Made by a program: the position numbers and the translations under genes. Below are positions 13,266 through 29,439 of a stretch of DNA of 64,000 bases, piece by piece. The notes under the pieces are model-generated. The model saw only the letters and a list, made by a program, of their open reading frames with translations, was not told the origin of the DNA and made no database searches. The stretch is from contig PNKH01000032.1 in NCBI GenBank assembly GCA_013822345.1, forward strand, positions 643 through 64,642, in the 5' to 3' direction. Origin of the DNA: Isosphaera sp. (lineage in GTDB: Bacteria > Planctomycetota > Planctomycetia > Gemmatales > Gemmataceae). Every line of letters starts with the position of its first letter. Positions within the stretch are counted from its first letter, which is position 1.

Positions 13266-13283
13266 ACCCAGACTGGGAGAACC

Positions 13284-13728: not shown

Positions 13729-14127
13729 GTGATTAAGCAGTTGCTCGTGACCGTGCTGAGTGGGGTGACGGTGGCCCTGGTGGTGCCGCTCGTCACCGGG
13801 TGTTCGAGCCCCGGCGGGTGCCGGAGCTGCCGGAAGGAGTCGCCGGGGCCGCCCCCGGCCCCGACCCTACCGGCCGCCAACCCGAGTGTCGGGGCCGGCG
13901 GTCCGGCCCAGCCTTACGGGCCGGCGAGTGCCCCGACCACCGCCCTACCGTTCGGGGGGCAGAAGACGTGCCCGGTGACCGGCGAGGAACTCGGTTCGAT
14001 GGGCAAGCCCATTGCCGTGACCGTGAAGGGCCAGACCGTTTACGTGTGCTGCCGCGGGTGCGCCGCCAAGGCCCAGGCGGACCCCGACAAGACGCTCGCG
14101 GCCGTCGCGGCCGACCGGGCGCGGTAG
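13729..14127 (+). CDS. Lipoprotein with YHS/TRASH-like domain
   Basis: VTG-C lipobox; GCRSC; TCPVTGEELGSMGKP...YVCCRGC. Confidence 0.75.
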   Translation: MIKQLLVTVLSGVTVALVVPLVTGCSSPGGCRSCRKESPGPPPAPTLPAANPSVGAGGPAQPYGPASAPTTALPFGGQKTCPVTGEELGSMGKPIAVTVKGQTVYVCCRGCAAKAQADPDKTLAAVAADRAR

Positions 14128-14277
14128 CACCCCGACATCGGCCGCAAGGCCGGGGGCCTCGCGCCGTCCCGAGTTTCGGGCGTTCGTGCCCGCCAGCCGA
14201 CGTCCTGACCCGGGCGGCCGAGGTCCGATCCAGGTGACGGGGCGAACAGACCCTGCCCCGAACGAGGGAGACCGACC

Positions 14278-16638
14278 ATGACACCCGTTCGACGCCCTCG
14301 GGTCTTCACCCGCAGCCGTCGGCTGTCGCTCGTCGCGCTGGTCACCGTCGGGGTCGCGGCCCTGCTCGCGCACGAGGGGCACGCCCCCCTCCCGACCAAG
14401 GGGGCGCAGGTAGACGCCGTTGCGGGCACCCTCCTCCTCACGGCGGACGCCCGCTCCGGTATCGACGTGGAGACGGCGGCCGTCGAGGTGCGGCCGGTCG
14501 AGGAGCGGGTGCTCGCCTACGCCTCGGTCGCGGCCCCGTGGCGCAACCACGCCTTCGCCACCGCGAAGGTGGCGGGGAGGATCGTCCGCGTGTCCGTTAC
14601 GCCGGGCCAGGTCGTCAAGGCGGGGGACACGATCGCCGAGGTCGAGAGCATGGAACTCGACACCCTCCAACTCGACGTCCTCGCCGCCCGCAACGACATC
14701 GCCCTGTCCGAGAAACTGGTTGCCGCGCTGACGAAGTCCGCCGACCAGGGGACCGTGTCGGGGCAAGCGGTGATCGACGCCGAGGGCACCCTGGCCCGGC
14801 ACCGCAACGCCCTGGATCTGGCCCGGAGCAAGTGGCTTGGCCTCGGCTTGCCCGCAGCCCAGTTCGACGAACTGCTCCGCCGCGGCGAGCCGCTCCCCGG
14901 CCTCGCCCTGCCCGTTACCGCCCCCGTGTCCGGCACCGTCGTCCACGCCGAACTGACGACCGGGAAGGTGGTCGAACCGACCGAACACCTGGCCGAGGTG
15001 ATCGACCTCTCGACCGTCTGGGTCCGGGTCGAGGTTCTGGAGAAGGACCTGCGCCGGGTGGTCGTCGGCCAGCCGGTCGAGCTGCACTTGGTCGCGTACC
15101 CGGGCGAGGTATTCCGCACGACGGTGAAGGCGAAGAGCCAGTTCCTCGACCCGGCGACGAACGTGACCACCGCGTGGGCCGAACTGAGTAACCCGAGCGG
15201 CCCCGAACCACGGTTCCGCCCGGGCATGTCCGGGCAGGCGTATCTCGTCGCGGTCGAGGAGGTGCCCGTACCGCCCGCGCTCGCGGCGGTCACCGGCGGG
15301 ATGGGCGTGGCAGTCCCGCCGGTGACCCCCGGCAGACTCCGCCCGACGATCCCGGCCGACGCCGTCCTTCGTGAGGGGGTCGAGCGGTTCGTCCTGGTCG
15401 AGGATGCGAAGACGGCCGGGTCGTCCGAGTACCGCCGGGTGCCGGTCGTGGTCGGGCGCGAGGGCGGCGGGCGTGTCGAGATCCTCGCGGGCGACGTCTT
15501 CCCCGGCGACCGGGTGGTCACCCGCGGCGGGCACGAACTCGGCCCGTTCTTCACGCCCGGGGTGCTGAAACTCAGTCCCGAGGCCGAGCGGAACGTCGGG
15601 CTCAGGGGCGCGAGGGACACGTCCGGACGGGACGCTGCCCTCAAGGTCGAACCCGCCCGGATCGTCGCGATCGACGAGATCCTCGCCCTGGACGGCGCGG
15701 TCGATGTCCCGCCCGCCCGCCGCGGGTTCGCCGCGTCCCAACTGCCCGGCACCGTGCAGGCGATCCGGGTGGACCGCGGGCAGGCCGTGGCCGCGGGCGA
15801 GGTACTGGCGGAGGTGTTCAGCCCGGACCTCTTGACCATGCAGCAGGAGTTACTCCGGGTCCACCTGGAGGCCGCGCTCGCCGCCGACACGCTCGGCCGC
15901 TGGCGGAAGACCGGGGGCGGGGTCGCGGCCCAGCGGGTGTGGGAACTGGAGAGCCAGTTGAACGGCCTGAAGACCCAGTCGGACACCCTCCGGCGGAAGC
16001 TCGTGACCGCGGGACTGACACCGGCCCGGGTCGAGCAGGTTCTCGCCGACAAGCGGCCCGTCGGCGTCGCGCCGGTCCGCGCCCCGTTCGCCGGGGTGGT
16101 GGTGGACTTCGACAAGGTGCTGGGCCAGGCCGTGGCCGCGCACGAGTCGCTGTTCGAGGTCCGCGACGCGGCGGCCCGCGCGCCGGTCCGGGGGTTCGTG
16201 GCCGAACGGGACGTCGGCCGGATCAGGCCCGACCAGGAGGTTCGCGTCCGGCTCGTGGCCGACCCGGCCTTCGTGGGCACCGGCCGGGTGGCGCGGAGCG
16301 GGCGGACCTTCGGGGCGGAGAACCGCACCCAGTCCGTCTGGGTGGAACTCGACGGCGACCCGGAACGATCGCTCTTACACGGCCAACTCGCCAGGCTGAC
16401 GGTCGTCCTCGGCCGCCGGCCGGCGGCGCTTGCGGTTCCACGGTCGGCGGTGGCCGCCGAGGGCACTGCGTCGTTCGTGTTCGTGCGGAAGCCGGACGGG
16501 GTGTTCGACCGCCGTTCCGTCGAGACGGGTCCGGCGGACGACCGCTTCGTGACGGTCACCCGCGGCCTGACCGAGGGCGAGCCGGTCGCGGTGGCCGGGG
16601 TGAACGAGTTGATGACCGGGTTCGCCTCGCTCAGGTAA
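14278..16638 (+). CDS. RND periplasmic adaptor (CzcB/CusB-like) with two tandem MFP modules
   Basis: Two sets of lipoyl/hairpin motifs (GRIVRV..VTPGQVVKAGD...VTAPVSG and GTVQAIRVDRGQAVAAGE...VRAPFAG); 786 aa. Confidence 0.85.
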   Translation: MTPVRRPRVFTRSRRLSLVALVTVGVAALLAHEGHAPLPTKGAQVDAVAGTLLLTADARSGIDVETAAVEVRPVEERVLAYASVAAPWRNHAFATAKVAGRIVRVSVTPGQVVKAGDTIAEVESMELDTLQLDVLAARNDIALSEKLVAALTKSADQGTVSGQAVIDAEGTLARHRNALDLARSKWLGLGLPAAQFDELLRRGEPLPGLALPVTAPVSGTVVHAELTTGKVVEPTEHLAEVIDLSTVWVRVEVLEKDLRRVVVGQPVELHLVAYPGEVFRTTVKAKSQFLDPATNVTTAWAELSNPSGPEPRFRPGMSGQAYLVAVEEVPVPPALAAVTGGMGVAVPPVTPGRLRPTIPADAVLREGVERFVLVEDAKTAGSSEYRRVPVVVGREGGGRVEILAGDVFPGDRVVTRGGHELGPFFTPGVLKLSPEAERNVGLRGARDTSGRDAALKVEPARIVAIDEILALDGAVDVPPARRGFAASQLPGTVQAIRVDRGQAVAAGEVLAEVFSPDLLTMQQELLRVHLEAALAADTLGRWRKTGGGVAAQRVWELESQLNGLKTQSDTLRRKLVTAGLTPARVEQVLADKRPVGVAPVRAPFAGVVVDFDKVLGQAVAAHESLFEVRDAAARAPVRGFVAERDVGRIRPDQEVRVRLVADPAFVGTGRVARSGRTFGAENRTQSVWVELDGDPERSLLHGQLARLTVVLGRRPAALAVPRSAVAAEGTASFVFVRKPDGVFDRRSVETGPADDRFVTVTRGLTEGEPVAVAGVNELMTGFASLR

Positions 16639-16651
16639 TGGGGGTCCGACC

Positions 16652-19600
16652 GTGCTGAACCGCGTGATCGCGTTCTCGCTCCAGAACCGGGTGTTGGTGC
16701 TGATCGCCGCCCTCGTGGTCGCCGCCGCCGGCCTCTACCAACTCGTCCGCACGCCGGTAGACGTATTCCCGGACTTGAACCGCCCGACCGTCACCATCCT
16801 CACCGAGGCACCGGGCCTTGCACCCGAAGAGGTCGAGGCGCTCGTCAGCCGGCCGATCGAGTACCAGGTGAACGGGGCGACCGGGGTGAAGCGGGTCCGG
16901 TCCGCGTCGGGCATCGGGCTGTCGGTGGTGTGGGTCGAGTTCGACTGGGGCACGGACATCTACCGGGACCGGCAGATCGTCGCCGAGCGGCTCCAACTCG
17001 TGCGGGAGCGGCTGCCCCAGGACGTGAACCCGGTGATGGCCCCGATCTCGTCCATCATGGGCGAGGTCATGATCCTGGGCCTGCGCCCGGCCGAGTCGCC
17101 GAAGACCCCGGAGGAGGCCCTCCAGAAGGGAATGGACCTGCGGACGTTCGGCGAGTTCACCGTCCGGAACCGGCTCCTGGCGATCGACGGCGTGTCGCAG
17201 GTCACGGTGATGGGCGGCTACCTGAAGCAGTACCAGGTGGTGACCTCACCCGAGCGGCTGGCGGCCCAGAAGGTCACCCTCCAGCAGCTCACCGACGCCG
17301 CCGAGAAGTCCTACGTACTGGCCGGCGGCGGGGTGATGGAGCGGGGCACGCGCGAATCGCTCATCCGGATCAGCGCGCAGAGCCTGACGCCGCAACAAAT
17401 CGAGGAAACCCCGGTCGTCTGGCGGGGCGACCGGGCGGTCCGGATCAAGGATGTGGCCGACGTCCGGTTCGCCGGCCCGGTCCGCCGCGGGGACGGAAGC
17501 ACCCTGGTCCGGGAGGGCGACCGCGTCGCCGGCGGCCCGTCGGTCATCCTGGCAGTCCAGAAGCAGCCGGGGGCGAACACCCTGGACCTCACCCCCAAGC
17601 TGGACGCCGCCCTGGCCCAACTCCAGGCCGACGCCCCACCCGGCGTGGTCGTGGAGCGCCGCGTGTTCCGACAGGCCGACTTCATCGAGACGGCCATCGA
17701 CAACGTGATCGAAGCGATCCGCGACGGGACGGTCTGGGTGTTCGTCGTCCTGCTGCTGTTCCTGGCCAGCATACGGACGAGTGTCATTACCCTGACCGCC
17801 ATTCCGCTCTCGATCCTGACCACCGTGCTGGTGTTCAGCTACTTCGGGATCACCATCAACACGATGACCCTCGGCGGCATCGCGGTCGCGGTCGGCGAAC
17901 TGGTGGACGACGCCATCGTGGACGTGGAGAACATTTTCCGCCGGCTGCGCGAGAACCGGCTGAAGGCCAACCCCGACCCGGCGCTCAAGGTGATCTTCAA
18001 GGCGTCGAGCGAGGTGCGCAACTCGATCGTCTACGCCACCCTGATCGTCTGCCTCGTCGTGTTGCCGCTCTTCGCCCTGTCCGGACTCGAAGGCCGGATG
18101 TTCGCCCCGCTCGGCCTCGCGTACCTGGTCGCGCTCCTCGCGTCGCTGGCCGTGTCCCTGACCGTCACGCCGGTCCTGGCGTCGCTCCTGCTGGGGCGGG
18201 CGGGGGCCACGGCCCACCCCCGAGACCCGCTCCTGCTCCGCGGCCTCAAGTGGGTGGACACCCGAGTCCTCCGGTACACCCTCCGGCACCCGCGGCCGAT
18301 CCTGGTCGCATCGCTCCTGCTGTCGGCGGTCACCATGCTCGCGGTGTTCGGGATGGGGTCCGAGTTCCTCCCCCCGTTCAACGAGGGGACGGTCACGGTC
18401 AACCTCCAACTCCCGCCGGGCACGAGCCTTGCCGAGAGCGGAAGGGTCGCGGCGCGGGCCGAGCAATCCCTGTTGCAGATCCCCGAGGTGGTGTCGGTGT
18501 CCCGGCGGACCGGGCGGGCCGAGCAGGACGAGCACGCCGAGGGGGTGAACACGTCCGAAATCGAGGTGCGGTTGACCCCGCACGAGCGGCCGAAGCCGGG
18601 GGTGGGGTACGCCCTCCTGCGGGCTGTCCCCGGCCTCCACGGGTACGGGGTCGAGAAGTCCGGCCGGCCGCACGACCAGGTGCTGGCCGACATCCGCGAC
18701 CGGGTGAGCAGCATCCCGAACGTGAAGGCGAACGTGGGGCAACCGATCAGCCACCGGCTCGACCACGTCATGTCCGGGGTGCGCGCCCAGGTCGCGGTCA
18801 AGGTGTTCGGTTCGGACCTCCAGGAACTGCGGAACGCGGCCCAGGAGATCCAGGACGCGATGGCGAAGGTCCCCGGCGTGGTGGACTTGCAGGTCGAGCC
18901 GCAGGTGGAAATCTCGCAGGTCCGGCTCCGGGTGAAGGTGGATGAGGCGGCTCGGTACGGCCTCGCCCCCGGCGACGTGTCGAGGCTGCTCGAAACCGCC
19001 TACAAGGGCCGGGTCGTGGCGACCGTGCTGGACGCGGAGAAGTACTTCAGCCTGGTGGTGTGGTACGACGAGGCGTCGCGGAACTCGCCCGCGGTGATCG
19101 GCCAGACCATCCTCGACACCCCGTCCGGCAAACGGGTGTCGCTCGACCAGGTGGCCGAGGTGCTGGACACGACCGGGCCGAACACCCTGAATCACGAGAA
19201 CGTGGCCCGGCGGGTAGTGGTGTCGTGCAACGTCCAGGGCCGGAGCCTCGGGGACGTGGTCGCCGACATCAAGCGGGCCGTCCGCCCGGTCGAAGAGAAG
19301 CTCCGGGCCAAGGGCGGGGAGTACCGGATCGAGGACGACGGCCAGTACCGCGCGCAGCAGGAGGCGAACAGCCGGCTCCTGGTGTTCGGTACGGCCGCCG
19401 TGGTCGGGGTGTTCCTGCTGCTGTGCCAGTGCCTGGGGTCGTGGCGGGCGGCGCTGATGGTCCTCGGCGTGAACATCCCGCTCGCCGGCCTGGGAGCAGT
19501 GGCGGCAATGCTGATCATTAACCGACCCGACCCTGCGGCCTTGCACGCCGCCCCGTGGTGGAAGTGGCCGGCGGTGTGGGCGCAGGCGACGACGCTCTCG

Positions 19601-20176
19601 GTCGCCCACTGGGTCGGGTTCATCACGCTCATCGGGATCGTCAGCCGCAACGGGATCATGATGATCGCCCACTACATCCACCTGATGCGGGAAGAGGGTG
19701 AGCCGTTCGGGAAGGACATGATCGTCCGCGGGAGCCTGGAGCGGCTGGCCCCGGTGCTGATGACTGCCAGCGTCGCGGTGATCGGACTGGTGCCGCTGGC
19801 ACTCGGGGCCGGGCAGACGGGCAAGGAGATCCTCCACCCGCTGGCCGTGGTGGTGATCGGCGGGCTGGTCACCTCGACCCTGATGGACCAGGTCGTGACC
19901 CCGGCCGTGTTCCTCCTCTTCGGCCGGAAGGTGTACACCCCGGAGGCACCGGCCTCCGACGGCAGGCGTGCCGTCGGTTGGGACGATGCGTGGCTGGCCG
20001 AACGCCCGGAACCGTTACCGCGGTCCGGGATCGTCCCGCCGCCACCGCCGATCGCCCACGAACCGCCCGCGCCGGGAGCCAAGGGACACCCGGAGGCGAA
20101 CGGGCCGGGTGGTCCGCCGGCCTCCGAACCGGCGGCGATACCGGCATCACAGTCCGCGCCGGCCCCCGAGGGATAG
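16652..20176 (+). CDS. CusA/CzcA-family heavy-metal efflux RND permease
   Basis: PVDVFPDLNRP, SASGIGLSVVWVEFDW, GELVDDAIVDVEN, ERLAPVLMTA, PLAVVVIGGLVTST. Confidence 0.92.
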   Translation: MLNRVIAFSLQNRVLVLIAALVVAAAGLYQLVRTPVDVFPDLNRPTVTILTEAPGLAPEEVEALVSRPIEYQVNGATGVKRVRSASGIGLSVVWVEFDWGTDIYRDRQIVAERLQLVRERLPQDVNPVMAPISSIMGEVMILGLRPAESPKTPEEALQKGMDLRTFGEFTVRNRLLAIDGVSQVTVMGGYLKQYQVVTSPERLAAQKVTLQQLTDAAEKSYVLAGGGVMERGTRESLIRISAQSLTPQQIEETPVVWRGDRAVRIKDVADVRFAGPVRRGDGSTLVREGDRVAGGPSVILAVQKQPGANTLDLTPKLDAALAQLQADAPPGVVVERRVFRQADFIETAIDNVIEAIRDGTVWVFVVLLLFLASIRTSVITLTAIPLSILTTVLVFSYFGITINTMTLGGIAVAVGELVDDAIVDVENIFRRLRENRLKANPDPALKVIFKASSEVRNSIVYATLIVCLVVLPLFALSGLEGRMFAPLGLAYLVALLASLAVSLTVTPVLASLLLGRAGATAHPRDPLLLRGLKWVDTRVLRYTLRHPRPILVASLLLSAVTMLAVFGMGSEFLPPFNEGTVTVNLQLPPGTSLAESGRVAARAEQSLLQIPEVVSVSRRTGRAEQDEHAEGVNTSEIEVRLTPHERPKPGVGYALLRAVPGLHGYGVEKSGRPHDQVLADIRDRVSSIPNVKANVGQPISHRLDHVMSGVRAQVAVKVFGSDLQELRNAAQEIQDAMAKVPGVVDLQVEPQVEISQVRLRVKVDEAARYGLAPGDVSRLLETAYKGRVVATVLDAEKYFSLVVWYDEASRNSPAVIGQTILDTPSGKRVSLDQVAEVLDTTGPNTLNHENVARRVVVSCNVQGRSLGDVVADIKRAVRPVEEKLRAKGGEYRIEDDGQYRAQQEANSRLLVFGTAAVVGVFLLLCQCLGSWRAALMVLGVNIPLAGLGAVAAMLIINRPDPAALHAAPWWKWPAVWAQATTLSVAHWVGFITLIGIVSRNGIMMIAHYIHLMREEGEPFGKDMIVRGSLERLAPVLMTASVAVIGLVPLALGAGQTGKEILHPLAVVVIGGLVTSTLMDQVVTPAVFLLFGRKVYTPEAPASDGRRAVGWDDAWLAERPEPLPRSGIVPPPPPIAHEPPAPGAKGHPEANGPGGPPASEPAAIPASQSAPAPEG

Positions 20177-20286
20177 AGGCGCGGGCCGCCGTACACGCCG
20201 GGGCGGTGAGGATTGCGTGTTGCAACCCGTCCCTGGCCGTGTGGTAGGAGAGGCGGCTCGGTGCCGCCAAGGAGAGAGACCTTTCG

Positions 20287-20622
20287 ATGATGCGATTCGT
20301 GTACGCCCTGGCGGCCGCTGCGGCGCTGGGCACCGCCTGGACCGCGACCGCCGACGACAAGAAGGAAACCAAGCTGACCGGCACACTCGTGTGCGGGAAG
20401 TGCAGCCTCAAGGCGACGCCGAAGTGCAGCAACGTCCTCCAGGTGAAGGAGGGCGACAAGCTCGTCAACTACTTCCTCGACGACAAGGGGAACGGCGAGC
20501 CGTACCACGAGGGCGTCTGCGGCGGTGACAAGGTCGAGAATGTGGCCGTCACCGGCACCGTCACCGAGAAGGACGGCAAGAAGACGGTCAAGCCGACCAA
20601 GGTCGAGTTGCCCAAGAAGTGA
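20287..20622 (+). CDS. Small exported Cys-motif protein (DUF6370-like)
   Basis: Signal peptide; LVCGKCSLK..KC.NVLQV...H..VCG...VTGTVTEKDGKK. Confidence 0.7.
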   Translation: MMRFVYALAAAAALGTAWTATADDKKETKLTGTLVCGKCSLKATPKCSNVLQVKEGDKLVNYFLDDKGNGEPYHEGVCGGDKVENVAVTGTVTEKDGKKTVKPTKVELPKK

Positions 20623-20754
20623 CGTGGAGTCGGGGCCCGGTGTCGAACCCTTCGGGCGGCACCCGGCCCCGGCGGTCACCAGTGGCCCAACGAGGGTCCG
20701 GCGGGAAGCCCCGACCGCGGCCGGGGCCGGCACCCTCAGCGACACGAGGAACTG

Positions 20755-22140
20755 ATGCAGCCCCAAATCACGATCTCGTCGGCCCAGTTTACGGGCTCAC
20801 AAACACTTGAGACGGGCTGGCAATACCATCGGGCAGGGCAGCACGCCCAGGCCGAACAGGTCTGCCGCCAGTTGCTGCAGGCCAACCCCGAGGACGCGCA
20901 GGCCTTGCGACTCCTCGGCCTGACCTGCCAGGCACAGAACAAGCTCGCGGACGCCGAGGCTCATTACCGCCGGGCGTTGTCCCTCCAGCCCGACGACGCC
21001 GAGATTCACAACGACCTGGGGGTGGCCCTGGGCAGGCGAGGCGACCTCGTCCAGGCCGTGCCCTCGTTCGAGCAAGCGGTCCGGCTCATGCCGAACCACG
21101 TGATCGCCCACAACAACCTGGCACAAGTCTTCCTCCAGCTCGGCCAGCCGAACAGAGCAGCCTTCCACTCATCTGAGGTCGTGCGTCTCCAGCCCGGCAG
21201 TGCCGACGCCCACAACCAGATGGGGGTGATCCTCGCCCAGCAAGGTCAATTCGACCCGGCCATGAACTCGTTCGAGCAGGCCCTCCGGATCAAGCCGGAC
21301 CACCCGGTCGCCGGCATGAATCTGGACAAGGTCCGATTTCTACAGCAGACCCAATTGCAGAACGCGACGAACCAGTTACTGGGAGCCATCTATTACAACC
21401 AGTTCCTGTCGATGGATCGCTACGCGGACCCGAAGAGGCTGTTGAAGTACGGCTACAAGGTCTACTCGCAGGGGTACGGGGACGGAATGATCCAGGAGAT
21501 TTTCTCCAGGGTCGGCATAACGAACAAGAGGTTCATCGAGTTCGGGGTGGAGACGCAAGAAAACAACACGTTGTTTTTGCTGCTGTCCGGCTGGTCAGGA
21601 CTCTGGCTCGACGCCCGGGCGTTGGACCTCGGGCCTGTAGCAAACCACATCAAGAACGGGACGCTCAAGTTCGCGCAGGTTGTCGTCACCGCCGAGAACA
21701 TCAACGGTGCGATCCGCGAGCACTACGGGGTGGGGGAAATCGACCTGTTGAGCATCGACATCAGCGGTAACGATTATTGGGTGTGGAAGGCACTCGACGC
21801 CGTTCGCCCCCGCGTGGTGGTGGTCGAGTACAACTCGTCCTTCTCCCCCCTCGGCAGCATGACCGTCAAGTACATGGCCGACGACCAGGTCAAGCTGGCG
21901 GCGCGCCTCAACGACTTCGGCGCCAGTCTGAAGGCGTACGAGAAACTGGGGGTGGAGAAAGGCTACCGGCTGGTCGGGTGCGATCTGCGAGGGGTGGATG
22001 CGTTCTTCGTCCGCGAGGACCTGGTCGGCGATCGCTTCTGCGAACCATTCACCTCGGAAAACCATTACGAGCCGCCACGATTCTTTCCACCACGATTACC
22101 TCACAACATGTTCGCACAAGGGGAATTCAAAGAAATCTAA
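20755..22140 (+). CDS. TPR-repeat protein fused to FkbM-like methyltransferase-fold domain
   Basis: About 5-6 TPRs (e.g. AEIHNDLGVAL, ADAHNQMGVIL), then YSQ..DG.IQEIF, FIEFG, SIDISGNDYW, VVVEYN, GASL, DAFFVR; visibly more A/T-ending codons than its neighbours. Confidence 0.75.
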   Translation: MQPQITISSAQFTGSQTLETGWQYHRAGQHAQAEQVCRQLLQANPEDAQALRLLGLTCQAQNKLADAEAHYRRALSLQPDDAEIHNDLGVALGRRGDLVQAVPSFEQAVRLMPNHVIAHNNLAQVFLQLGQPNRAAFHSSEVVRLQPGSADAHNQMGVILAQQGQFDPAMNSFEQALRIKPDHPVAGMNLDKVRFLQQTQLQNATNQLLGAIYYNQFLSMDRYADPKRLLKYGYKVYSQGYGDGMIQEIFSRVGITNKRFIEFGVETQENNTLFLLLSGWSGLWLDARALDLGPVANHIKNGTLKFAQVVVTAENINGAIREHYGVGEIDLLSIDISGNDYWVWKALDAVRPRVVVVEYNSSFSPLGSMTVKYMADDQVKLAARLNDFGASLKAYEKLGVEKGYRLVGCDLRGVDAFFVREDLVGDRFCEPFTSENHYEPPRFFPPRLPHNMFAQGEFKEI

Positions 22141-22200
22141 AGTGTGAAGAAAGCACGGCGGCGGTAGCCGCAACGCGACAGGGGGCCGGCGCACAGGCCG

Positions 22201-22314
22201 CCGCCCGGGTTCCTGGCGACGCACTACGGCATCGGCACGCCGCTCGCGGTGCTGGTCGCCCACGTGGCGTTCGGCACCATCCTCGGAGCCTTCTGTGACA
22301 TCGACCTTCGCTGA
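22201..22314 (+). repeat. Orphan copy of the last 114 bp of the membrane-protein gene (26707-26820)
   Basis: Encodes PPGFLATHYGIGTPLAVLVAHVAFGTILGAFCDIDLR*; 22247-22314 is identical to 26753-26820 (68 bp). Confidence 0.92.
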
Positions 22315-22357
22315 TCGTCAGCATGCCTCGACATTCTTCACGTGCCGAGGGCTGCGG

Positions 22358-22428
22358 CCGGCAGCGTCACCGAGAAGGACGGCAAGAAGACGGTCAAGCC
22401 GACCAAAGTCGAGCTACCCAAGAAATGA
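22358..22428 (+). repeat. Orphan copy of the last 71 bp of the DUF6370-like gene (20552-20622)
   Basis: 66 of 71 nt match, including the stop codon; differences are mostly synonymous. Confidence 0.92.
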
Positions 22429-22676
22429 TCGAGCGGAGTTACCCGAACGGGGCCGGACCGAATGCCGCCGCGGCGCTATTCGCGGACGGGCACCCAGCCG
22501 CCCGTCCGGGGCAGCTACCGCGGGGCGATGACACTCCACCACGGCGGAAGGCGGTAGTGTTCCGCCGCGAAGTATGGCCAGCCGAGCGGCGGTGGCTCCC
22601 CCGGGCCCCTCGAACCTGAATCCGGGCCGTGGGCCACTCGACTCGGATGTTGTTTCCCCCTCTCCGGAGATTGACG

Positions 22677-23114
22677 ATGCGACACCTCGTTCCCCCAAGC
22701 CTGTGCCTCGTGGCCGTGGTCGTCGTCGCGGGGGCCCTCACGACGGGTTCCACCACACCAAGCCCGGCCGCCCAGCCGCAGAACGATCCCGTGAAGACGC
22801 TCCAGAAGGAGCGTCTGACGGCCCTCCAGAAGATTCACGACGAGTCGCTCCGGGCCTACAAGGGCGGTCAACTGCCTCTCGACCAGGTGCTGTCCGCCCA
22901 CCTCGCGCTGCTCAACGGCAAACTCGACCTGTGCGAGACGAACGCCGAGCGGGTTAAGATTCACGAGGAGATGGTCCGGGTGGCCGAGGAGTTCTTGAAG
23001 AGCGTCCGGAAGCTGGCGGAAGCCAAGCAGGTCAGCAGCCTCGACGTGCTCAAGGCCGAGGTCCAACTTCTGGACGCCCGGATCGGGCTGGAAAAGGCCA
23101 AGGCCGCCAAGTGA
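22677..23114 (+). CDS. Small secreted all-helical protein resembling one TolC/OEP helical repeat
   Basis: GGAGA RBS; signal peptide; VSSLDVLKAEVQLLDARIGLEK. Confidence 0.65.
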   Translation: MRHLVPPSLCLVAVVVVAGALTTGSTTPSPAAQPQNDPVKTLQKERLTALQKIHDESLRAYKGGQLPLDQVLSAHLALLNGKLDLCETNAERVKIHEEMVRVAEEFLKSVRKLAEAKQVSSLDVLKAEVQLLDARIGLEKAKAAK

Positions 23115-23338
23115 CGGGGTATTGCCAGGACGGGTGCCAACACCGGCACGCACAGGGCATCCACAGGATCGGCTGCATCGGCAGAGGGCTTGTCGTCACG
23201 ACGGACGAGTAGAACAGCAATCGCTTGATGTACAGCCGGGCCGTAAGGCTGTGGACACCGACCCGCATCGTTGCCCTTCGGCTCGCCAAATCTCATAACC
23301 GAGTGAAGTGATATCCCAACAGGCGACAGGCCAATGCG

Positions 23339-25192
23339 ATGACAGGAGCGACGCCGAAAATCCAGGACTATGCCGTCATCGGTGACGGGCGGGCGGGCGC
23401 GCTGGTGTCCCGGGACGGCTCCATCGACTGGCTGTGCTGGCCCCGGTTCGATAGCCCGTCGCTGTTCGGGGCGCTCTTGGACCGGCGGGTCGGAGGTGCC
23501 TGGAGCGTCACGCCCGCCCTGCCGGCCGAAGTCGAACGCCGCTACATCGACGAAACGAACGTGCTACAGACCCGGTTCCGCACGGCCACGGGGGCGATGA
23601 CCCTCACCGACTTCATGGTGGCATTCTCCGAGGAGGACAAGCGGCGGCGGCTCATGCCGGAGCACGAGTTGGTGAGGCGGGTGGAGTGCGAGCACGGGGA
23701 AGTGGAAATCCTCGCCCACTTCGACCCGCGCCCCGACTACGGCCGGGCCGAGTTCCGCATCCGCGACGCCGGGGCGCTCGGCCTCCGTATTGACATGGGG
23801 TCGTGGCTGGTCGCGCTCCACGGCGGCGTGAAGTTCGCCCCGGCCGCGGAAGGCGGGGCGTCGGCGCGCGTCACGCTGAGAGCCGGGGAGTCTACCACCT
23901 TCTCACTCACGTACTCGGCCGAGGGGCCGGCCGTGGTCCCGCACCTCGGCGAGGGCGCCGCGGAGAAGCTCGCGCTCACCGTCGGGTGGTGGCAGCGCTG
24001 GGCGGCCCGTGCCCGTTACGACGGCCCGTACCGCGACGCCGTCGTCCGCAGCGCGCTCGTACTCAAGCTGCTGTCCTATGCCCCGTCGGGGGCCATCGTC
24101 GCGGCACCGACCACGTCCCTGCCAGAGCGGCTCGGCGGCGACCTGAACTGGGACTACCGCTTCTGCTGGCTGCGCGACGCCGCGTTCACGGCCCGCGCCC
24201 TCTTCGGCCTCGGCTACGAGGAGGAAGCCGAAGCGTTTTGCAGTTGGATGCTGCACGCGACGCGGCTCACCCGCCCGGAGCTGCGGGTCCTCTACGACGT
24301 GTTCGGCGAAACCCTCCCGAAGGAGACGGACCTGCCACACCTCGAAGGGTACGCCGGGTCGCGCCCGGTCCGCGTCGGGAACGCGACGCGGGACCAGCTC
24401 CAGCTCGACGTGTACGGCGAGGTCGTCGAGGCGTGTACATACTTCGCCGGGCGCGGCGGCGCGCTCGACCGCGACACGCAGCAGATGCTCCGCCACTTCG
24501 GCGAGTACGTCTGCCGCCACTGGCAGGAGCCGGACAACGGCATCTGGGAGCCGCGCGGGGTGCGGCAGCACTTCACCCACTCGCGGCTCCTGTGCTGGGT
24601 GGCCCTGGACCGCCTCCTCGCACTGCACCGGGCGGGTCGCATCCGCGGCATCCCGGCAGACCGGTTCGCGGCAAATCGGGAGCGCATCCGGCGCGACATC
24701 GAGGAGCGGGGCTGGAACCCGACGCTGGAAAGTTACACCGCGGTCCTGGGCGGGGAGACCCTCGACACGACCGTCCTCCAGATGGCGTTCCTGGGGTTTG
24801 CCGAGGCGTCTTCGGAGCGGATGCGGCAGACCTGCCGGAGGCTCCGGGAGCGCCTGGGCGCGGGGCCGGGGCTGATCTACCGCTACGAGCAGAGTTTCGA
24901 GGGCCGCGAGGGCGCGTTCGCCATGTGCTGTTTCTGGGTCGCCGATTTCCTCGCCCGGGGCGGCGGCAGCCTGGGCGAGGCGCACGACTCCTTCGCCCGG
25001 ACGCTCGCGTACGCCAACGACCTGGGGCTGTTCGCCGAGGAGATCGACCCGCGGACCGGGGACGCGCTGGGCAACTTCCCGCAGGCGTTCACCCACGTCG
25101 GCCTCATCAACGCCGCCCTCTCGCTGGCGGAACGGGAGGAGCGGGACCGCCGCCAGGAAGGAGCCGCTGCCCGCGGCCGTCCCTTTCGGTAA
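23339..25192 (+). CDS. Glycoside hydrolase family 15 (trehalase/glucoamylase-like)
   Basis: IQDYAVIGD, SIDWLCWPRFDS, AAPTTSLPE..GG..NWDYRFCWLRDA, QLDVYGE, GNFPQAFTHVGLI. Confidence 0.9.
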   Translation: MTGATPKIQDYAVIGDGRAGALVSRDGSIDWLCWPRFDSPSLFGALLDRRVGGAWSVTPALPAEVERRYIDETNVLQTRFRTATGAMTLTDFMVAFSEEDKRRRLMPEHELVRRVECEHGEVEILAHFDPRPDYGRAEFRIRDAGALGLRIDMGSWLVALHGGVKFAPAAEGGASARVTLRAGESTTFSLTYSAEGPAVVPHLGEGAAEKLALTVGWWQRWAARARYDGPYRDAVVRSALVLKLLSYAPSGAIVAAPTTSLPERLGGDLNWDYRFCWLRDAAFTARALFGLGYEEEAEAFCSWMLHATRLTRPELRVLYDVFGETLPKETDLPHLEGYAGSRPVRVGNATRDQLQLDVYGEVVEACTYFAGRGGALDRDTQQMLRHFGEYVCRHWQEPDNGIWEPRGVRQHFTHSRLLCWVALDRLLALHRAGRIRGIPADRFAANRERIRRDIEERGWNPTLESYTAVLGGETLDTTVLQMAFLGFAEASSERMRQTCRRLRERLGAGPGLIYRYEQSFEGREGAFAMCCFWVADFLARGGGSLGEAHDSFARTLAYANDLGLFAEEIDPRTGDALGNFPQAFTHVGLINAALSLAEREERDRRQEGAAARGRPFR

Positions 25193-26308
25193 CATCACAA
25201 CAGACGTACAAGTTTGGCGGGCTCAGAACAAAGGGAGGACGCTGTGAAGTGGAGATTATTTCTGTTGCTCGGGACCGCTTTGCTCCCGACTGCCGCGATA
25301 GGGGCGGAGGAAGGGAAGCAGCCCGTGAAGTGTGTGGGACACGAGGCGATCGTCACCGCAGTCGCCCTCTCCCCCGATGGCAAGGTGGCCGTTTCCAACA
25401 GCGACGATCGCACGCTGCGCTTTTGGAACACGGCCGACGGCAAAGAGATCCGGAAGGTGGAAGCCGGTTTCTGGATCGGCGGCGTCCGCTTCTCGCCCGA
25501 TGGCAAGTACTTGGCCACCACGGCGACGGATTCGGTGCGCTTCTGGGATCCCGCGACTGGCAAAGAAGTCGGAAAAGACATCAAGGAACACTTGACCGTA
25601 AAGGAGCCCGGGTACGGTCTGGCGTTCTCGGCGGACGGCTCCAAACTGGTCGTTGCCTGCGGTACTGGGGCGGAGGTCTGGGACGCGAGGCTCGGCCGGA
25701 AGCTGCGGGATTTCCGGCCGAAGGACAAAGGCTTCGGCAATGCCCGGCAGGTGGCAATTTCGCCGGACGGCTCGCTCGTGGCCGCCGCCTTGCTCGGCGA
25801 GGGCGGCAGAGATACGGAGGAGGGGTTTCCCGCGGTGCGCGTTTGGGAGGCGAAAAGCGGGGAGGAAATGTTCAAAACGTGGGCTGGAACAAGCGCAGAC
25901 GCCGTCGCGTTCTCGCCCAGCGGGAAGCAACTGGCGATTGGCGGGATGCTTCCTGACGGGGCAGACCACAACGGGGTGCTCGAAATCTGGGATCTCGACC
26001 CGAACGGGAGCAGGCTCCTTTCGCGGGTACGGGCCGACAAGCACGGCCTGTTCTGCCTGGCCTTCAGCCCGGACGGCAAGACCATCGCCACGGGCGGGAC
26101 CGAGCCGGCGGTCAAGCTGTGGAACGCAACCACCGGCGAGTTGATCGGGAAGCTGGAAGGGCACTCCGACCAAGTTCACGCCCTCGCCTTCTCCGCAGAC
26201 GGGAGGAGCCTCGCTTCGGCGGGAAGGGATAAGCTCGTCTTGATCTGGCCGATGGGAGGTGGCCGGAGGTAAACCGCCTCACGCCAAGAAGCAGCCGCAG
26301 CCCGCGGC
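25151..26308 (+). repeat. 27-bp imperfect direct repeat (25151-25177 and 26282-26308) bracketing the WD40 gene
   Basis: cgccaggaaggagccgctgcccgcggc vs cgccaagaagcagccgcagcccgcggc (24/27). Confidence 0.8.
25244..26272 (+). CDS. Secreted WD40-repeat protein
   Basis: GGAGG RBS and GTG start; signal peptide; repeated GH...V..VA.SPDG...LRFWN/VKLWN units. Confidence 0.88.
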   Translation: MKWRLFLLLGTALLPTAAIGAEEGKQPVKCVGHEAIVTAVALSPDGKVAVSNSDDRTLRFWNTADGKEIRKVEAGFWIGGVRFSPDGKYLATTATDSVRFWDPATGKEVGKDIKEHLTVKEPGYGLAFSADGSKLVVACGTGAEVWDARLGRKLRDFRPKDKGFGNARQVAISPDGSLVAAALLGEGGRDTEEGFPAVRVWEAKSGEEMFKTWAGTSADAVAFSPSGKQLAIGGMLPDGADHNGVLEIWDLDPNGSRLLSRVRADKHGLFCLAFSPDGKTIATGGTEPAVKLWNATTGELIGKLEGHSDQVHALAFSADGRSLASAGRDKLVLIWPMGGGRR

Positions 26309-26337
26309 GACCGTGAACAGGCTCCGGAGGCGCGTCG

Positions 26338-26820
26338 ATGAACTTCGGTAGCTGGCTGCTGTGGGGCTTCGTGGGCACGGTCGTGCTGAGCGTCATCGTC
26401 GCCGCGAGCCAGGGGTTGGGCCTGACGCGGATGAACATGCCGTACCTGCTCGGCACCGTCTTCACGCCGGACCGGGACCGGGCGAAGCTGATCGGCGTCG
26501 CGTGCCACTTCGCCAGCGGCTGGCTTTTCGCCCTCGTCTACTTCGCCGCCTTCCACGCCCTGGGCACGGCGACGTGGTGGCTCGGGGCACTGGCGGGGCT
26601 GGTCCACGGCTCCTTCGTCCTGACGGTCGGCATGCCCCTGCTGCCCGCCCTGCACCCCCGCATGGCCAACGAGCAGTACGGGCCGACCGTGGTCCGGCAG
26701 TTGGAGCCGCCGGGGTTCCTGGGGTTGCATTACGGCATCGGTACGCCGGTTTCGGTGCTGGTCGCCCACGTGGCGTTCGGCACCATCCTCGGAGCCTTCT
26801 GTGACATCGACCTTCGCTGA
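26338..26820 (+). CDS. Conserved membrane protein
   Basis: Four hydrophobic segments; GLTRMNMPYLLGT, HPRMA, PPGFLG. Confidence 0.75.
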   Translation: MNFGSWLLWGFVGTVVLSVIVAASQGLGLTRMNMPYLLGTVFTPDRDRAKLIGVACHFASGWLFALVYFAAFHALGTATWWLGALAGLVHGSFVLTVGMPLLPALHPRMANEQYGPTVVRQLEPPGFLGLHYGIGTPVSVLVAHVAFGTILGAFCDIDLR

Positions 26821-26862
26821 CAGTCGGCACGCCCGACCTCATGCACGGCCCGAGGGCTGGGG

Positions 26863-26895
26863 CCGGCACCGGCCCGAGGAGGACGGCAGGAAGAC
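26863..26895 (+). repeat. Degenerate further copy of the DUF6370-like 3' segment
   Basis: ccggcaccggcccgaggaggacggcaggaagac vs ccggcaccgtcaccgagaaggacggcaagaagac; preceded by the same spacer as the 22358 copy. Confidence 0.7.
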
Positions 26896-26956
26896 CGCCG
26901 GAGGAGAGTGCGCCGGCATCGATTCGGCACCACGAATTCGTGAAGAGGGGATTGAG

Positions 26957-27427
26957 ATGGCCGGGTGTTGCGGGTCGAACGAGCGGTCGCGGGCGAGGAA
27001 GTTGCTCGGGCCGGTGGTCTGGCTGCTGATCGGGGTCTTCGTGGTCGGACTCGCAATCTGGGAGCGGCAGCCGCACCACCACGCTGACGTCGGGCCGCAC
27101 GGCGGCCCGCTGGCCGACTGGGACGACGGGGCGATCCACTTGGAGATCGACATCGGCCGGGACGAGGAGACGGCGACCATCTACGCCCTCGACCGGTGGG
27201 CCAAGAGGCCGAAGCCGATCGACGCCAAGCCGCTCACCCTCACCCTGAAGACCGACCCGGAGAGGGTGGTGATTTTCGACCCGGACCCAGACGCGGGCGA
27301 CCCGCCCGGCCGGTCCAGCCGGTTCACCGCGCGTCACCACGTCTTCTGGCCGCAGGCCAAGGTGCGCGGGACCGTATCCGGGACGGCCGAGGGCAAGCCG
27401 TACTCCGGCGACGTTAGCGAAAAGTAG
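26957..27427 (+). CDS. GxHGG-type membrane-anchored protein
   Basis: N-terminal GCCG and TM; HHHADVGPHGG...HLEI...DAGDPPGRSSRF. Confidence 0.7.
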   Translation: MAGCCGSNERSRARKLLGPVVWLLIGVFVVGLAIWERQPHHHADVGPHGGPLADWDDGAIHLEIDIGRDEETATIYALDRWAKRPKPIDAKPLTLTLKTDPERVVIFDPDPDAGDPPGRSSRFTARHHVFWPQAKVRGTVSGTAEGKPYSGDVSEK

Positions 27428-27530
27428 TCCGCCGCGCAACTCGCGGGCGGGGGGTCGTTCCACTGCCGGGCGGTGCGGGCGGCGGGTCGTTCGACTCCCC
27501 CGCCACCCGCCCCACCAGAGGAGTTCAGCC

Positions 27531-27872
27531 ATGCGAGCGTTCGTTACCGCGTGCCTGGCGGCGGTGGCCGTCGCTTTCTCCGCCGGCGTCGCGTCAGCCC
27601 AGCACGGTGGGGGCCACGGCGGCGGTCACGTCGTCGTTCCGGCCCACGCCGGGGGTCACGCCCCGGTCTACCACCCGCCGGCGCACTACGCCCACGGCGG
27701 GTACGCCGTCCCCTCCGGCGGGTTCGGCATCGGGGTGTACGCGGGGCCGACCTACGGGCCGCCGGTCGGCGCCTACCCCGGCCCTGCGGTGGTTCCCGCC
27801 CCGTACTACCCCGGGTACGGCTCCGGCTACAGCTACGGCCACCACCGACCTCACCGCCTGTTCCACCATTGA
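27531..27872 (+). CDS. Small secreted Gly/His/Tyr/Pro-rich protein
   Basis: GAGGAG RBS; signal peptide ending ASA; QHGGGHGGGH...HHRPHRLFHH. Confidence 0.65.
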   Translation: MRAFVTACLAAVAVAFSAGVASAQHGGGHGGGHVVVPAHAGGHAPVYHPPAHYAHGGYAVPSGGFGIGVYAGPTYGPPVGAYPGPAVVPAPYYPGYGSGYSYGHHRPHRLFHH

Positions 27873-27975
27873 TCCCGACTCGGGATCGCGCGGCTGCCAG
27901 GGCGGGTCCGGGGCCGATGGGGCTGCGGCCCGCCGGGCCGCCTGGTGGACGCGCTCTTCTGGAGACCGACGAACG

Positions 27976-29439
27976 ATGCATGGCGACCCTTCGGCCCCAC
28001 CGGCCATCCCCCGCCGTGGCATCGGATTCCACACGGCTGTTGCGGTGAACGTCGTGCTGCTCGCCGGCGTCGCCGGGTTCCTGGTGTTCGATGCCGCCCG
28101 GGAGACCCGACAGCGGGAGCGGGAGAAGGTAACCGCGCTGGACGAGGAGGCGATGACCCTGCACCAGGCCGTCGCCCACCTCACCCACCACTCGGCGGAC
28201 GAGATCCAGGCGTTCGTGGACGGGGTGTGCGGGCGGATGACCGACGCGGCCTCGCCGGGTCATCATATCGTGGCCGAGGCGGGCGGGCGGGTGTACCAGG
28301 CCCGCGCCCACGGGCGGGACTCGGACGACACCGTCCGGACAGTCCGCGCGGCCGCACAGGCCCCCGACCGCCGGGGCGCGATCCAGGGGGAAGTTGTCGT
28401 CGTCGGGACGCACGACGAGGGCGGCGTCCGCGTCTTCGTGGCCGAGCGGCTGGACACCATCCGCCGCGAGGTCCGCACCCAGGTCGCCCTCCGGGCCGCG
28501 GGGGTGCTGGCGTTCGGCCTGGTGCTGGCGGCGGCCGTCAACCTCACCGTCTACCGGCTGGTGACCCGCCCGCTGCGGCGACTGGCGCGAACCCTCGGGG
28601 CGATCCGGGCCGGTGAGCTGGGGGCCCGGGCGGGCGCGTACAAAAGCCGGGAACTCGCCGTCCTGGCCGCCGCCGTGAACGACATGAGCCGGGCGCTGGC
28701 CGCGGACGAGGCCCGCCGCCGGGCGGCCATCGCGCACGCCCGGCGGGTGCAGGAGAACCTGCTGCCGAAGCCCGCCCGGGCGGTCCCCGGGGTCACGATC
28801 GCCGCCGTCCACCACCCGGCCGACGGGGTGGCCGGGGACTACTACGACGCCCTCCCGCTCCCCGACGGGTCGGTGCTGGTGTGCGTGGCCGACGTGGTCG
28901 GGCACGGGGTGCCGGCGGCGATGGTGGCGGCCGTCCTCAAGGTGCTGGTGCTGGACGCGGCCGAGGCCGACCCGGACCCCGGGCGGGTGGTGCGGCGGGT
29001 GAACGCCCGGTTCACCGCCCTCGGCATCCCGGACGGGTTCGCGTCGCTCCTGGTCGCCCGCTGGTGCCCCGCGCGGCAGACTCTGTGGTACGCCAGCGCC
29101 GGGCACGAGCCGGGGTTGTTGGCGGCCGGCTCGGACCCGCCGGTCCCCCTCGACGCGACCGGCACGCTGCTCGGCGTTGTGGAGGACGGGGAGTGGGCAA
29201 GCCTCGCCGTTCCGGCCGGTTCGGGGGCCACGCTGCTGTTGCTGACCGACGGGGTCACGGAAGCGATGGACGCGGACGGCGTCCAGTTCGGACGGTCCCG
29301 GCTGCGCGAGGTCGTTGCCGGGGTCGGGAGCGGGGATCCCGAGCGCGTGGTCGGGGCGGTGGACGCGGGCGTGCGGGAGCACCTGGCCGGCCACCCGCCG
29401 GCGGACGACTACACCCTAGTGGTTGTCCGGTTCGGGTGA
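27976..29439 (+). CDS. Membrane SpoIIE/RsbU-type PP2C phosphatase with HAMP domain
   Basis: Two TMs, HAMP (RPLRRLA...RELAVLAAAVNDM), VAGDYYD, VADVVGHG, SAGHEP, LLTDGVTEA, DDYTLV. Confidence 0.88.
   Translation: MHGDPSAPPAIPRRGIGFHTAVAVNVVLLAGVAGFLVFDAARETRQREREKVTALDEEAMTLHQAVAHLTHHSADEIQAFVDGVCGRMTDAASPGHHIVAEAGGRVYQARAHGRDSDDTVRTVRAAAQAPDRRGAIQGEVVVVGTHDEGGVRVFVAERLDTIRREVRTQVALRAAGVLAFGLVLAAAVNLTVYRLVTRPLRRLARTLGAIRAGELGARAGAYKSRELAVLAAAVNDMSRALAADEARRRAAIAHARRVQENLLPKPARAVPGVTIAAVHHPADGVAGDYYDALPLPDGSVLVCVADVVGHGVPAAMVAAVLKVLVLDAAEADPDPGRVVRRVNARFTALGIPDGFASLLVARWCPARQTLWYASAGHEPGLLAAGSDPPVPLDATGTLLGVVEDGEWASLAVPAGSGATLLLLTDGVTEAMDADGVQFGRSRLREVVAGVGSGDPERVVGAVDAGVREHLAGHPPADDYTLVVVRFG

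Follow-up and report, generated by a model that had tools for sequence, protein, structure and literature searches.

The 64,000-nucleotide stretch of DNA analysed here (the window) carries the 3′ end of a membrane-protein gene twice, about 4.5 kb apart. This raises the questions of how the second copy arose, and whether the block of genes between the two copies can move as a unit.

A composite direct repeat

A preliminary description of the window had reported that the tail of the membrane-protein gene (here M) occurs twice, with a sharp step in identity. Repeat search and self-BLAST aligned positions 22200-22391 with 26706-26895 (192 nt, 86.5% identity, offset 4506), and global alignment extended the repeat to 22197-22391 and 26703-26895, giving 195 columns with 28 differences (86% identity). 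The copies, A upstream and B downstream, are direct repeats on the same strand, 4.5 kb apart within a planctomycete metal-resistance island. The longest exact run is 68 nt (22247-22314 and 26753-26820), and ends on the TGA of M. Differences number 11 in the 50 positions to the left of this core, none in its 68 positions and 17 in the 77 to its right. Both the reported step and the renewed drop in similarity past the stop codon were therefore confirmed, and the peptide readings FLATHYGIGTPLAV and FLGLHYGIGTPVSV proved correct. Divergence before the core had been called codon-conservative, and this did not hold: 8 base changes in 15 codons include 5 non-synonymous ones, which produce 4 amino-acid changes. 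The parts of the repeat and the genes from which it is built are as follows.

20287..20622, + strand: D1, intact DUF6370 gene (Pfam PF19897, E 1.2e-10)
20552-20622, + strand: last 71 nt of D1, the source-type tail of the repeated 'D tail'
22197..22314, + strand: copy A, last 39 codons and stop of a second M gene (dead 3′ fragment)
22247..22314, + strand: 68-nt exact core, copy A
22315..22357, + strand: spacer, copy A (~78% identical to 26821-26862)
22358..22437, + strand: D2, last 71 nt of DUF6370 and ~9 nt of native 3′ flank (93% identical to 20552-20622)
26338..26820, + strand: intact M gene, 160 aa, YagU/DUF1440/DUF6789-like membrane protein, whose last 118 nt are copy B
26753..26820, + strand: 68-nt exact core, copy B
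26821..26862, + strand: spacer, copy B
26863..26895, + strand: D3, remnant of the DUF6370 tail, its first 33 nt in decayed form (88% identity to the D tails of L046 and other loci)

In each copy the repeat is thus a composite junction (J), running from the M 3′ end through a spacer of ~45 nt into the tail of the DUF6370 gene (D), and the junction between spacer and D tail is identical in kind in A and B. A DUF6370 tail does follow the spacer, as claimed: 22358-22428 matches 20552-20622 at 93% identity, and 26863-26895 is a shorter, more decayed copy. D2 differs from D1 at 1 position over the shared 34 nt and from D3 at 5-6. D2 and D3 begin at the same base, which reflects descent of the whole junction rather than independent events. 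The spacer was also compared with DUF6370 coding sequence, as a possible decayed remnant of it, and resembles neither that sequence nor the M 3′ flank of any relative.

Copy A lacks a start codon and is preceded by an in-frame TAG at 22165-22167; by tblastn it matches M residues 108-160 in the sister strain. The two copies had been described as alleles of the same junction. They are indeed diverged versions of one composite junction, but the left one is a fragment of a second M gene. M itself has 5548 homologues at E <= 1e-20, many of them named YagU-like, and an exact-product look-up of M gave no match. Its Pfam scores lie below the gathering thresholds (22.0 bits against PF20587, cut-off 27.1; 21.4 bits against PF07274, cut-off 34.7), so that M is a relative, not a scored member, of the DUF1440/YagU-like or DUF6789 family; many close homologues carry a precomputed PF07274 match. 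The C-terminal CDIDLR, whose ancestry had been left as a question, is ancestral among the closest Gemmataceae homologues, which end in FCDIDLR, FCDLDLR or FCDLDFP, whereas the wider family (158 aa) ends in AFY...

Both copies are present in two strains

Since a metagenome assembly is the probable source of the window, 99% of whose words are found in run X1, and De Bruijn contigs break at the core, we considered a collapsed or chimeric repeat. Both copies recur in an independent second assembly, a Frigoriglobus MAG, with one contig spanning each. The contigs are 98-99% identical to the window and cover 21779-23589 (L036) and 26107-28159 (L001); each contains one copy, arranged as in the window and anchored in unique sequence to its left and right. 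Contigs from many runs break at the same points. The repeat is therefore not an assembly artefact, an explanation that we find barely credible.

The repeat lies in a lineage-specific filling

The surroundings of the repeat contain the following genes.

16652-20176: RND (CusA-like) efflux gene, in the operon closed by D1
20755..22140, + strand: intact gene for a TPR and FkbM-like methyltransferase protein, between D1 and copy A (Pfam TPR families, Methyltransf_21)
22677..23114 (alternative start 22629), + strand: small helical protein, first gene of the 4.5-kb block (partial match to the outer-membrane efflux protein family, OEP, PF02321, E 4.3e-8)
23339..25192, + strand: GH15 glycoside hydrolase with trehalase-like N domain (PF00723, E 7.5e-62; PF19291)
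25244..26272, + strand: WD40 gene between GH15 and M
26957..27427, + strand: 'down1' gene (tblastn and blastn matches to L046, L048 and L051)

The RND-DUF6370 pair is conserved across many Gemmataceae loci. GH15 ends less than 100 nt from the M start in 33 of 34 related loci, across phyla; M is single-copy in all relatives compared, and its 3′ flank is different in each (L127, L121 and L002). In the orthologous islands of L046 and L048, where the D tail is single-copy, CusA and D are followed after 570 nt by down1, and in L051 by 5 kb of other genes and then down1, down2 and PP2C, so that the space behind D varies between genomes. The native 3′ flank of D1 is common to the window and L070 up to ~20667, and the match of D2 to the D 3′ flank of L046 and L037 reaches 22436-22437. 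Upstream of down1, homology to L046 and L048 resumes at ~26896, right after D3. D3 is thus joined directly to ancestral sequence, ~60 nt upstream of down1, and down1, which follows DUF6370 in the orthologous islands, marks the right edge of the added DNA. Positions 20623-26895 are absent from these islands. As M is single-copy behind GH15 in relatives, and the RND-DUF6370 pair is there followed by the gene found here at 26957, this segment is a lineage-specific filling. The genomes compared contain no exact empty site for the M repeat.

Within the filling, the WD40 gene separates GH15 from M in this species only, and is bracketed by a duplicated 27-nt GH15 tail (25151-25177 and 26282-26308, 89%). 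Full-length homologues of the TPR-FkbM protein have 461 and 460 aa, and homology stops at the stop codon of the gene. There is no paralogy outside J after D1, D2 or D3, after TPR-FkbM or upstream of M, and the sequences that follow D1, D2 and D3 show no similarity to one another above shuffled controls (z -0.5 to 0.4). A scan for the spacer/D-tail junction in genomes of 185,579 species returned only the sister strain and chance GC-rich matches in unrelated phyla, confining J to this Frigoriglobus-like species; two scans of JGI metagenome contigs gave no match for the J pattern and none for the M end. D-tail-only fragments were not found elsewhere: in L002 the D gene is truncated differently, and L120, taken at one point for such a fragment, encodes a 390-aa fusion protein with an internal motif.

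The 68-nt island of identity

Both flanks of the core are ~22% diverged, and given that many differences a run of at least 68 identical positions has P = 5e-5 (1e6 permutations). The segment is therefore significantly longer than flank divergence predicts, and is bounded on both sides. Of the 68 core positions, 6 differ in the orthologue L127, 10 in L121 and 10 in L002; coding constraint consequently does not account for the lack of differences. Selection on a function of the 68 nt itself, as a mini-ORF or a regulatory or RNA element in both copies, would have a candidate in a predicted hydrophobic mini-ORF of 21 codons (GTG at 22249 to TGA at 22314), and the island does start 2 nt before this in-frame GTG and end exactly at the stop codon. 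However, a sequence resembling a ribosome-binding site is absent before the GTG, Rfam families gave no match, no promoter-like site was found, a scan for terminators or promoters showed no excess, and the M orthologues vary at 6-10 of the same positions. We regard this explanation as highly improbable.

The most likely source of the island, as we infer it, is a short gene-conversion patch or the repair of heteroduplex left by a crossover. The earlier proposal of recent recombination or gene conversion is upheld in this form. Its 'recent' can only be relative: two strains ~2% apart both carry the identical core. In a test for donor and direction, sites that distinguish L121 from L127 were interspersed over the full length of M, and those of the tract did not stand out. 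Over the 46 nt before the core, a short sample, copy A is nearer L127 and L002 and copy B nearer L121. These mixed affinities could mean that A and B came from different donors instead of by duplication in situ.

A proposed history of the locus

Past DNA rearrangements most likely left the repeat behind as an ordinary scar. The history that we consider probable is that J formed once, was duplicated with a larger segment, lost most of its upstream unit and later received a 68-nt conversion patch; the order and kind of the events, duplication and deletions, are a reconstruction. In a Frigoriglobus-like lineage, the widely conserved GH15-M operon would have landed at the end of a CusCBA-type metal-efflux operon, behind its last gene, DUF6370. 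J would have arisen there once, the DUF6370 tail being duplicated in the process, and would have comprised the last 39 codons of M, ~45 nt of M 3′ flank and the last 71 nt of DUF6370. A later segmental duplication, probably in tandem, would have supplied the second J. GH15 and ~121 codons from the start of M may then have disappeared from the upstream unit, leaving copy A non-coding beside the TPR-FkbM gene. In the downstream unit GH15-M would have survived, with WD40 arriving later and the DUF6370 tail losing its end. The copies would have drifted to ~22% divergence before short-patch conversion or crossover heteroduplex repair equalised 68 nt, prior to the split of the two known strains.

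Several points count against this history. It needs one junction formation, one duplication, at least two deletions and one conversion, and no intermediate state is present in any genome compared. D2 is closer to D1 than to D3, so that a simple duplication of J needs an extra conversion; and as paralogy does not extend beyond J, a larger duplicated unit is unproven.

Alternatively, J could be the reusable end of incoming units. Three nested brackets of duplicated 3′ ends lie within 6.3 kb (D, 71 nt, three times; M and spacer, 195 nt, twice; GH15, 27 nt, twice), D2 and D3 share their start base, and the space behind D is variable between genomes. The inner ORFs scanned include no mobility gene, as in published insertions with long target duplications (PMC2853133). 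However, the common start of D2 and D3 comes from shared descent of J, the dissimilar sequences after D1, D2 and D3 leave no common right arm, and the M fragment lies upstream of the intact gene, opposite to a target duplication. Moreover, J is in no other species, and tail-only fragments of D are not found elsewhere. A reusable end therefore seems unlikely to us.

No sign of an active mobile unit

The preliminary description suggested that the block between the copies could loop out or amplify as a unit. We found no evidence of this: the ratio of block to flank contig depth is ~1 in the higher-coverage metagenome runs X2, X3, X5 and X6, and no recombinase gene was identified. Integrase and transposase families were absent from the 8 ORFs in 20287-27872 and from ten more in 1119-33644, outside 10539-14277. 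An integron-type cassette was rejected, since J contains no inverted repeat (repeat search) and the scanned ORFs no integrase. No sign of an active mobile unit was therefore found.

One contig deserves separate mention. In the low-coverage run X9, an 860-nt contig joins 22246 to 26753, which is a deletion joint and counts against the proposed history. The Logan contigs were built with k=31, shorter than the 68-nt repeat, and high-coverage contigs break inside the core; such contigs cannot test deletion or circle joints. As both alternative arms in X9 fall in coverage gaps (22328-22463 and 26534-26705), the assembler would walk through the repeat. We judge that assembler behaviour explains this contig, which is thus uninformative.

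The same contig is the exact empty-site or deletion joint predicted by a Campbell-type insertion and excision. Here a 4.5-kb circle (spacer, D tail, helical gene, GH15, WD40 and M) would have integrated into a resident J by homologous crossover in the longest identical stretch, so that the core marks the crossover, and the block would still be able to loop out or amplify. The polarity agrees with this, in that the intact gene lies downstream of the fragment. The outer flanks count as the 'resident' sides: to the left, copy A is contiguous with CusA-D-TPR, and to the right, copy B with down1. The first 40 nt of the core are identical in L127 too, which makes a pre-existing identical stretch plausible. 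However, J must pre-exist in both partners, leaving its origin unexplained. The block is not missing from X9, where its depth is similar (3.6-7.6 versus 7.4), and the joint there is open to the assembler explanation given above. A contig of run X14 traverses copy B in the parental arrangement, the depth ratio in higher-coverage runs is ~1, and the two strains have an unchanged arrangement. We therefore hold integration of a circle to be rather unlikely. Through the 68-nt identity, RecA could on rare occasions delete the 4.5-kb block; there is no indication of a frequent, regulated or selected process.

Discussion

The locus is mainly a worked example of the patchwork of accessory islands. An otherwise invariant GH15-M pair has been relocated to the variable region downstream of a metal-efflux operon, gene 3′ ends remain as datable scars, and a dead fragment was apparently still able to exchange sequence with the live gene. 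Its sole notable aspect is the recurrence of gene-tail duplications (27, 71 and 195 nt) within 6.3 kb. We consider it quite doubtful that the region represents lineage-specific gene addition without a recombinase in cis, as three nested insertions each bracketed by such a duplicated 3′ end. If it does, 'insertion with long target duplication' would apply not only to restriction-modification genes but also to the everyday cargo carried by metal-resistance islands of planctomycetes; the repeats would be handles for later loss or amplification, and the joint in X9 a genuine deletion allele. If the tail duplications were mechanistic rather than accidental, they would bear on the unsolved mechanism of long-target-duplication insertions.

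In published insertions of that type the insert has no mobility gene, and amplification via the repeats was proposed (Nobusato et al. 2000; Furuta et al. 2010, PMC2853133). The present locus shares direct repeats of more than 30 bp that bracket a small insert and overlap gene 3′ ends: a 195-nt repeat surrounds ~4.3 kb (<20 kb) without mobility genes, the Pfam content being OEP-like, GH15, WD40 and membrane protein only. The D-tail and GH15-tail duplications fit the layout, with targets that are single-copy in relatives, and have the intact copy upstream and the spare downstream. The M repeat does not: its truncated copy lies upstream of the intact gene, an order that target duplication does not give. 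The locus also differs in that the inserted genes are not restriction-modification genes, that its copies are 22% diverged rather than nearly identical, and that no exact empty site is known.

Tandem accretion at gene 3′ ends is a second point of comparison. There att sites are repeated, and conjugative elements stand with mobilised non-autonomous elements (ICE/CIME). As in that system, every added block is followed by another copy of a gene 3′ end, and the gene itself stays intact through the first copy. However, the ORFs scanned in 1-33 kb include no integrase or other recombinase, the right arms of the repeats are dissimilar, with no related arms beside the copies, the blocks are only 1.8 and 4.5 kb, and the repeats are diverged.

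General bacterial recombination includes short-tract gene conversion, in which the partners are dispersed direct repeats or a gene and its pseudogene fragment. The present tract differs in that its end falls exactly on a stop codon, perhaps by chance. It otherwise resembles such events, with a perfect 68-nt island, ~22% divergence on each side, and an intact gene and a dead fragment as partners.

A duplicated junction behind the efflux operon

The repeated junction behind the RND efflux operon is most likely a scar left by rearrangement and later patched by conversion. Upstream of the operon come multicopper oxidase, HMA and OEP genes; beyond it the 3′ end of its last gene is found three times in series, intact at 20552–20622, as a full tail at 22358–22437 and decayed at 26863–26895. 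The features concerned are:

14278–16638, CusB-like gene of the RND efflux operon
16652–20176, CusA-like gene of the RND efflux operon
20287–20622, D1, intact DUF6370 gene (Pfam PF19897, E 1.2e-10), closing the operon
22358–22437, D2, DUF6370 tail after repeat copy A, running through the stop codon plus about 9 nt of native 3′ flank, 93% identical to 20552–20622
26338–26820, M, intact gene for a 160-aa membrane protein, with its 3′ end in repeat copy B
26863–26895, D3, decayed DUF6370 tail after copy B, with the first 33 nt of the tail left

The preliminary description had reported that the tail of M is duplicated 4.5 kb upstream of the intact gene, with a sharp step in identity, and the repeat is present as described. 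A repeat search of the window returned the direct repeat pair 22200–22327 and 26706–26833, and window self-BLAST aligned 22200–22391 with 26706–26895 (192 nt, 86.5% identity). Global alignment carried the homology out to 22197–22391 (copy A) and 26703–26895 (copy B), with 28 differences in 195 columns.

In both copies of this repeat, J, the final 39 codons of M lead into a spacer of about 45 nt, which is followed by the terminal part of a DUF6370 gene. The joint between spacer and DUF6370 tail is identical in position in the two copies, indicating that they have one origin and did not arise by independent truncations. Copy A lacks a start codon, and is separated from the TPR-FkbM gene (20755–22140, same frame) by the TAA of that gene and a further in-frame TAG. 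To judge from its sequence, copy A is evidently a dead fragment of a second M gene.

Self-BLAST also detected two repeats in the upstream efflux operon, a 363-nt direct repeat (11466–11828 and 12089–12451, 76% identical) and an 81-nt tandem-like repeat (11345–11425 and 11384–11464).

An identity island within the repeat

The longest exact run shared by the copies is a 68-nt core (22247–22314 and 26753–26820), whose last bases are the TGA of M. Differences between the copies fall in 11 of 50 columns before the core, none of 68 within it and 17 of 77 after it; with 28 randomly placed differences, a clean run of at least 68 would occur with P = 5e-5. Orthologues of M differ from the window at 6 (L127), 10 (L121) and 10 (L002) of the 68 core positions. 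Coding constraint therefore cannot account for the identity of the core between flanks that are 22% apart. As the island is bounded on both sides, short-patch gene conversion, or heteroduplex repair at a crossover, is a better explanation than a single crossover. The earlier proposal of gene conversion is thus supported. The divergence ahead of the core had also been called codon-conservative; it is not especially so, since five of the eight base changes there alter an amino acid. CD[IL]DLR, the form of the terminal CDIDLR motif of M, is common to the closest Gemmataceae homologues and so is ancestral among them.

Distribution of the junction

A scan for the spacer/DUF6370-tail joint in one genome per species (185,579 species) returned contigs of a Frigoriglobus MAG, a sister strain of the window, together with chance matches in unrelated phyla; J was thus found in this species only. 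Two JGI metagenome scans, one for the J pattern and one for the M end, gave no match. The sister strain is 98–99% identical to the window over contigs covering 19633–21281 (L043), 21779–23589 (L036) and 26107–28159 (L001). It carries both copies of J, each spanned by a single contig, and the 68-nt core is the same. The homogenising event is therefore older than the approximately 2% divergence of the two strains.

Within 22464–23589, which contains the helical OEP-like gene (22677–23114), the strains are 95.7% identical in DNA and 86.9% in protein, with several small indels, between flanks at 98–99%. This segment appears to be either a hot spot where divergence is concentrated or an import by recombination.

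Genes filling the site

The pairing of the RND genes with the DUF6370 gene is conserved across many Gemmataceae. In two orthologous islands (L046 and L048, CusA 84% identical in amino acids) the DUF6370 gene is followed by about 570 nt and then by the counterpart of the window gene at 26957–27427; in a third relative (L051) 5 kb of unrelated genes separate the two. Homology of the window to L046 and L048 restarts at about 26896, directly after D3. These layouts indicate that 20623–26895 is a lineage-specific filling of a variable site behind the DUF6370 gene. It comprises TPR-FkbM, copy A, the helical OEP-like gene, GH15, WD40, M and copy B. The TPR-FkbM gene is complete (homologues of 461 and 460 aa), homology ends at its stop codon, and its homologues elsewhere lie between HMA-domain genes. 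The L046 spacer (10272–10839) holds an apparently decayed response-regulator receiver gene (LVVDDNTLR...), which is intact in L051 (13908–14915) and absent from the window.

The family of M is very large (5548 proteins at E ≤ 1e-20, with YagU-like as a frequent label), and the Pfam matches of M itself are below cut-off. GH15 ends less than 100 nt from the start of M in 33 of 34 related loci, drawn from Planctomycetota, Verrucomicrobiota, Gemmatimonadota, Myxococcota, Acidobacteriota and others; the one exception is the sister strain. This species alone has a WD40 gene (25244–26272) between GH15 and M. A duplicated 27-nt GH15 tail (25151–25177 and 26282–26308, 89% identical) flanks the WD40 gene on its two sides, and ahead of M the original end of GH15 persists as a fossil, together with the ATGA stop/start overlap. 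The sequence 3′ of the M stop codon is different in each relative compared (L127, L121, L002).

In L121 (GCA_900696445.1, CAADGC010000111, 1–20483) GH15–M lies inside a second copper-type island with OEP, multicopper oxidase, a 111-aa ORF, DUF305, HMBD-SPW-VKOR and M50 peptidase genes. In Gemmataceae this sugar hydrolase/membrane protein pair seems to move together with metal-resistance genes. Several families of the L121 island are also present in window 1–10 kb. A Gemmataceae MAG of a different genus (L002/L071, JAIEQO010000550) has a 5′-truncated DUF6370 gene at about 2049–2231 (residues 52–111 only) that abuts the end of an FAD-oxidoreductase-like ORF; GH15–M follows 6 kb downstream.

Looping out or amplification of the block

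The core is longer than RecA recombination usually requires, and looping out or amplification of the 4.5-kb block between the copies, as suggested earlier, is possible in principle. Metagenome runs containing window DNA, among them biofilter and drinking-water runs, were examined as Logan contigs (k = 31, shorter than the 68-nt repeat). In the runs of higher coverage (X1–X7) contigs end within the core (22276/22285 and 26782/26791), whatever the true linkage. Contig depths of block and flanks were alike in X2 (block 26.5 and 17.5; flanks 23.5, 12.4 and 22), X5 (block 16 and 19.1; flanks 16.1, 14.2 and 25.3), X3 and X6, giving no evidence for either event. In one 860-nt contig from the low-coverage run X9, 22246 continues directly into 26753, the exact deletion joint. 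This joint was set aside: the block is still present in X9 at 3.6–7.6×, and the two alternative arms (22328–22463 and 26534–26705) are both coverage gaps, so that the assembler would run straight through the repeat. A contig from X14 spans copy B with its parental flanks, and copy A is uncovered in that run.

No integrase or transposase families were detected among 18 ORFs scanned (1.1–33.6 kb), Rfam gave no match, and promoter-like and terminator-like sites were not in excess.

A different joint recurs in X4, X6, X7, X14 and X15, where a short match that reaches 27119, within gene 26957–27427, continues through TCAACAACT to 20552, where the DUF6370 tail begins. Its depths, up to 19.8, are above those of the window strain, and it is probably another organism's gene with a DUF6370-like tail.

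Origin of the arrangement

Sequence comparison makes the following history the most likely. A GH15–M operon would have been placed behind the DUF6370 gene with duplication of the DUF6370 tail, forming J once. A segment containing J would then have been duplicated; in the upstream unit GH15 and most of M would have been deleted, with copy A as the remnant, and the downstream unit would have lost the distal DUF6370 tail and the old spacer before gene 26957–27427. WD40 would have entered between GH15 and M, and the copies would have drifted until a conversion patch made 68 nt identical again. Against this history, many events are required and D2 is nearer D1 than D3; no intermediates are known, and no paralogy is left outside J. 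One main rival, Campbell-type integration of a 4.5-kb circle through J, fits the polarity of the arrangement but presupposes J in both partners.

The other main rival is a dedicated accretion process. Three nested gene-tail duplications (of the DUF6370 gene, M and GH15) within 6.3 kb speak for it, yet the right arms after D1, D2 and D3 are unrelated. Such duplications resemble insertion with long target duplication, as described for restriction-modification genes (PMC2853133). Here, however, the intact M comes second, downstream of its fragment, an order that counts against accretion and is not an outcome of that mode of insertion.
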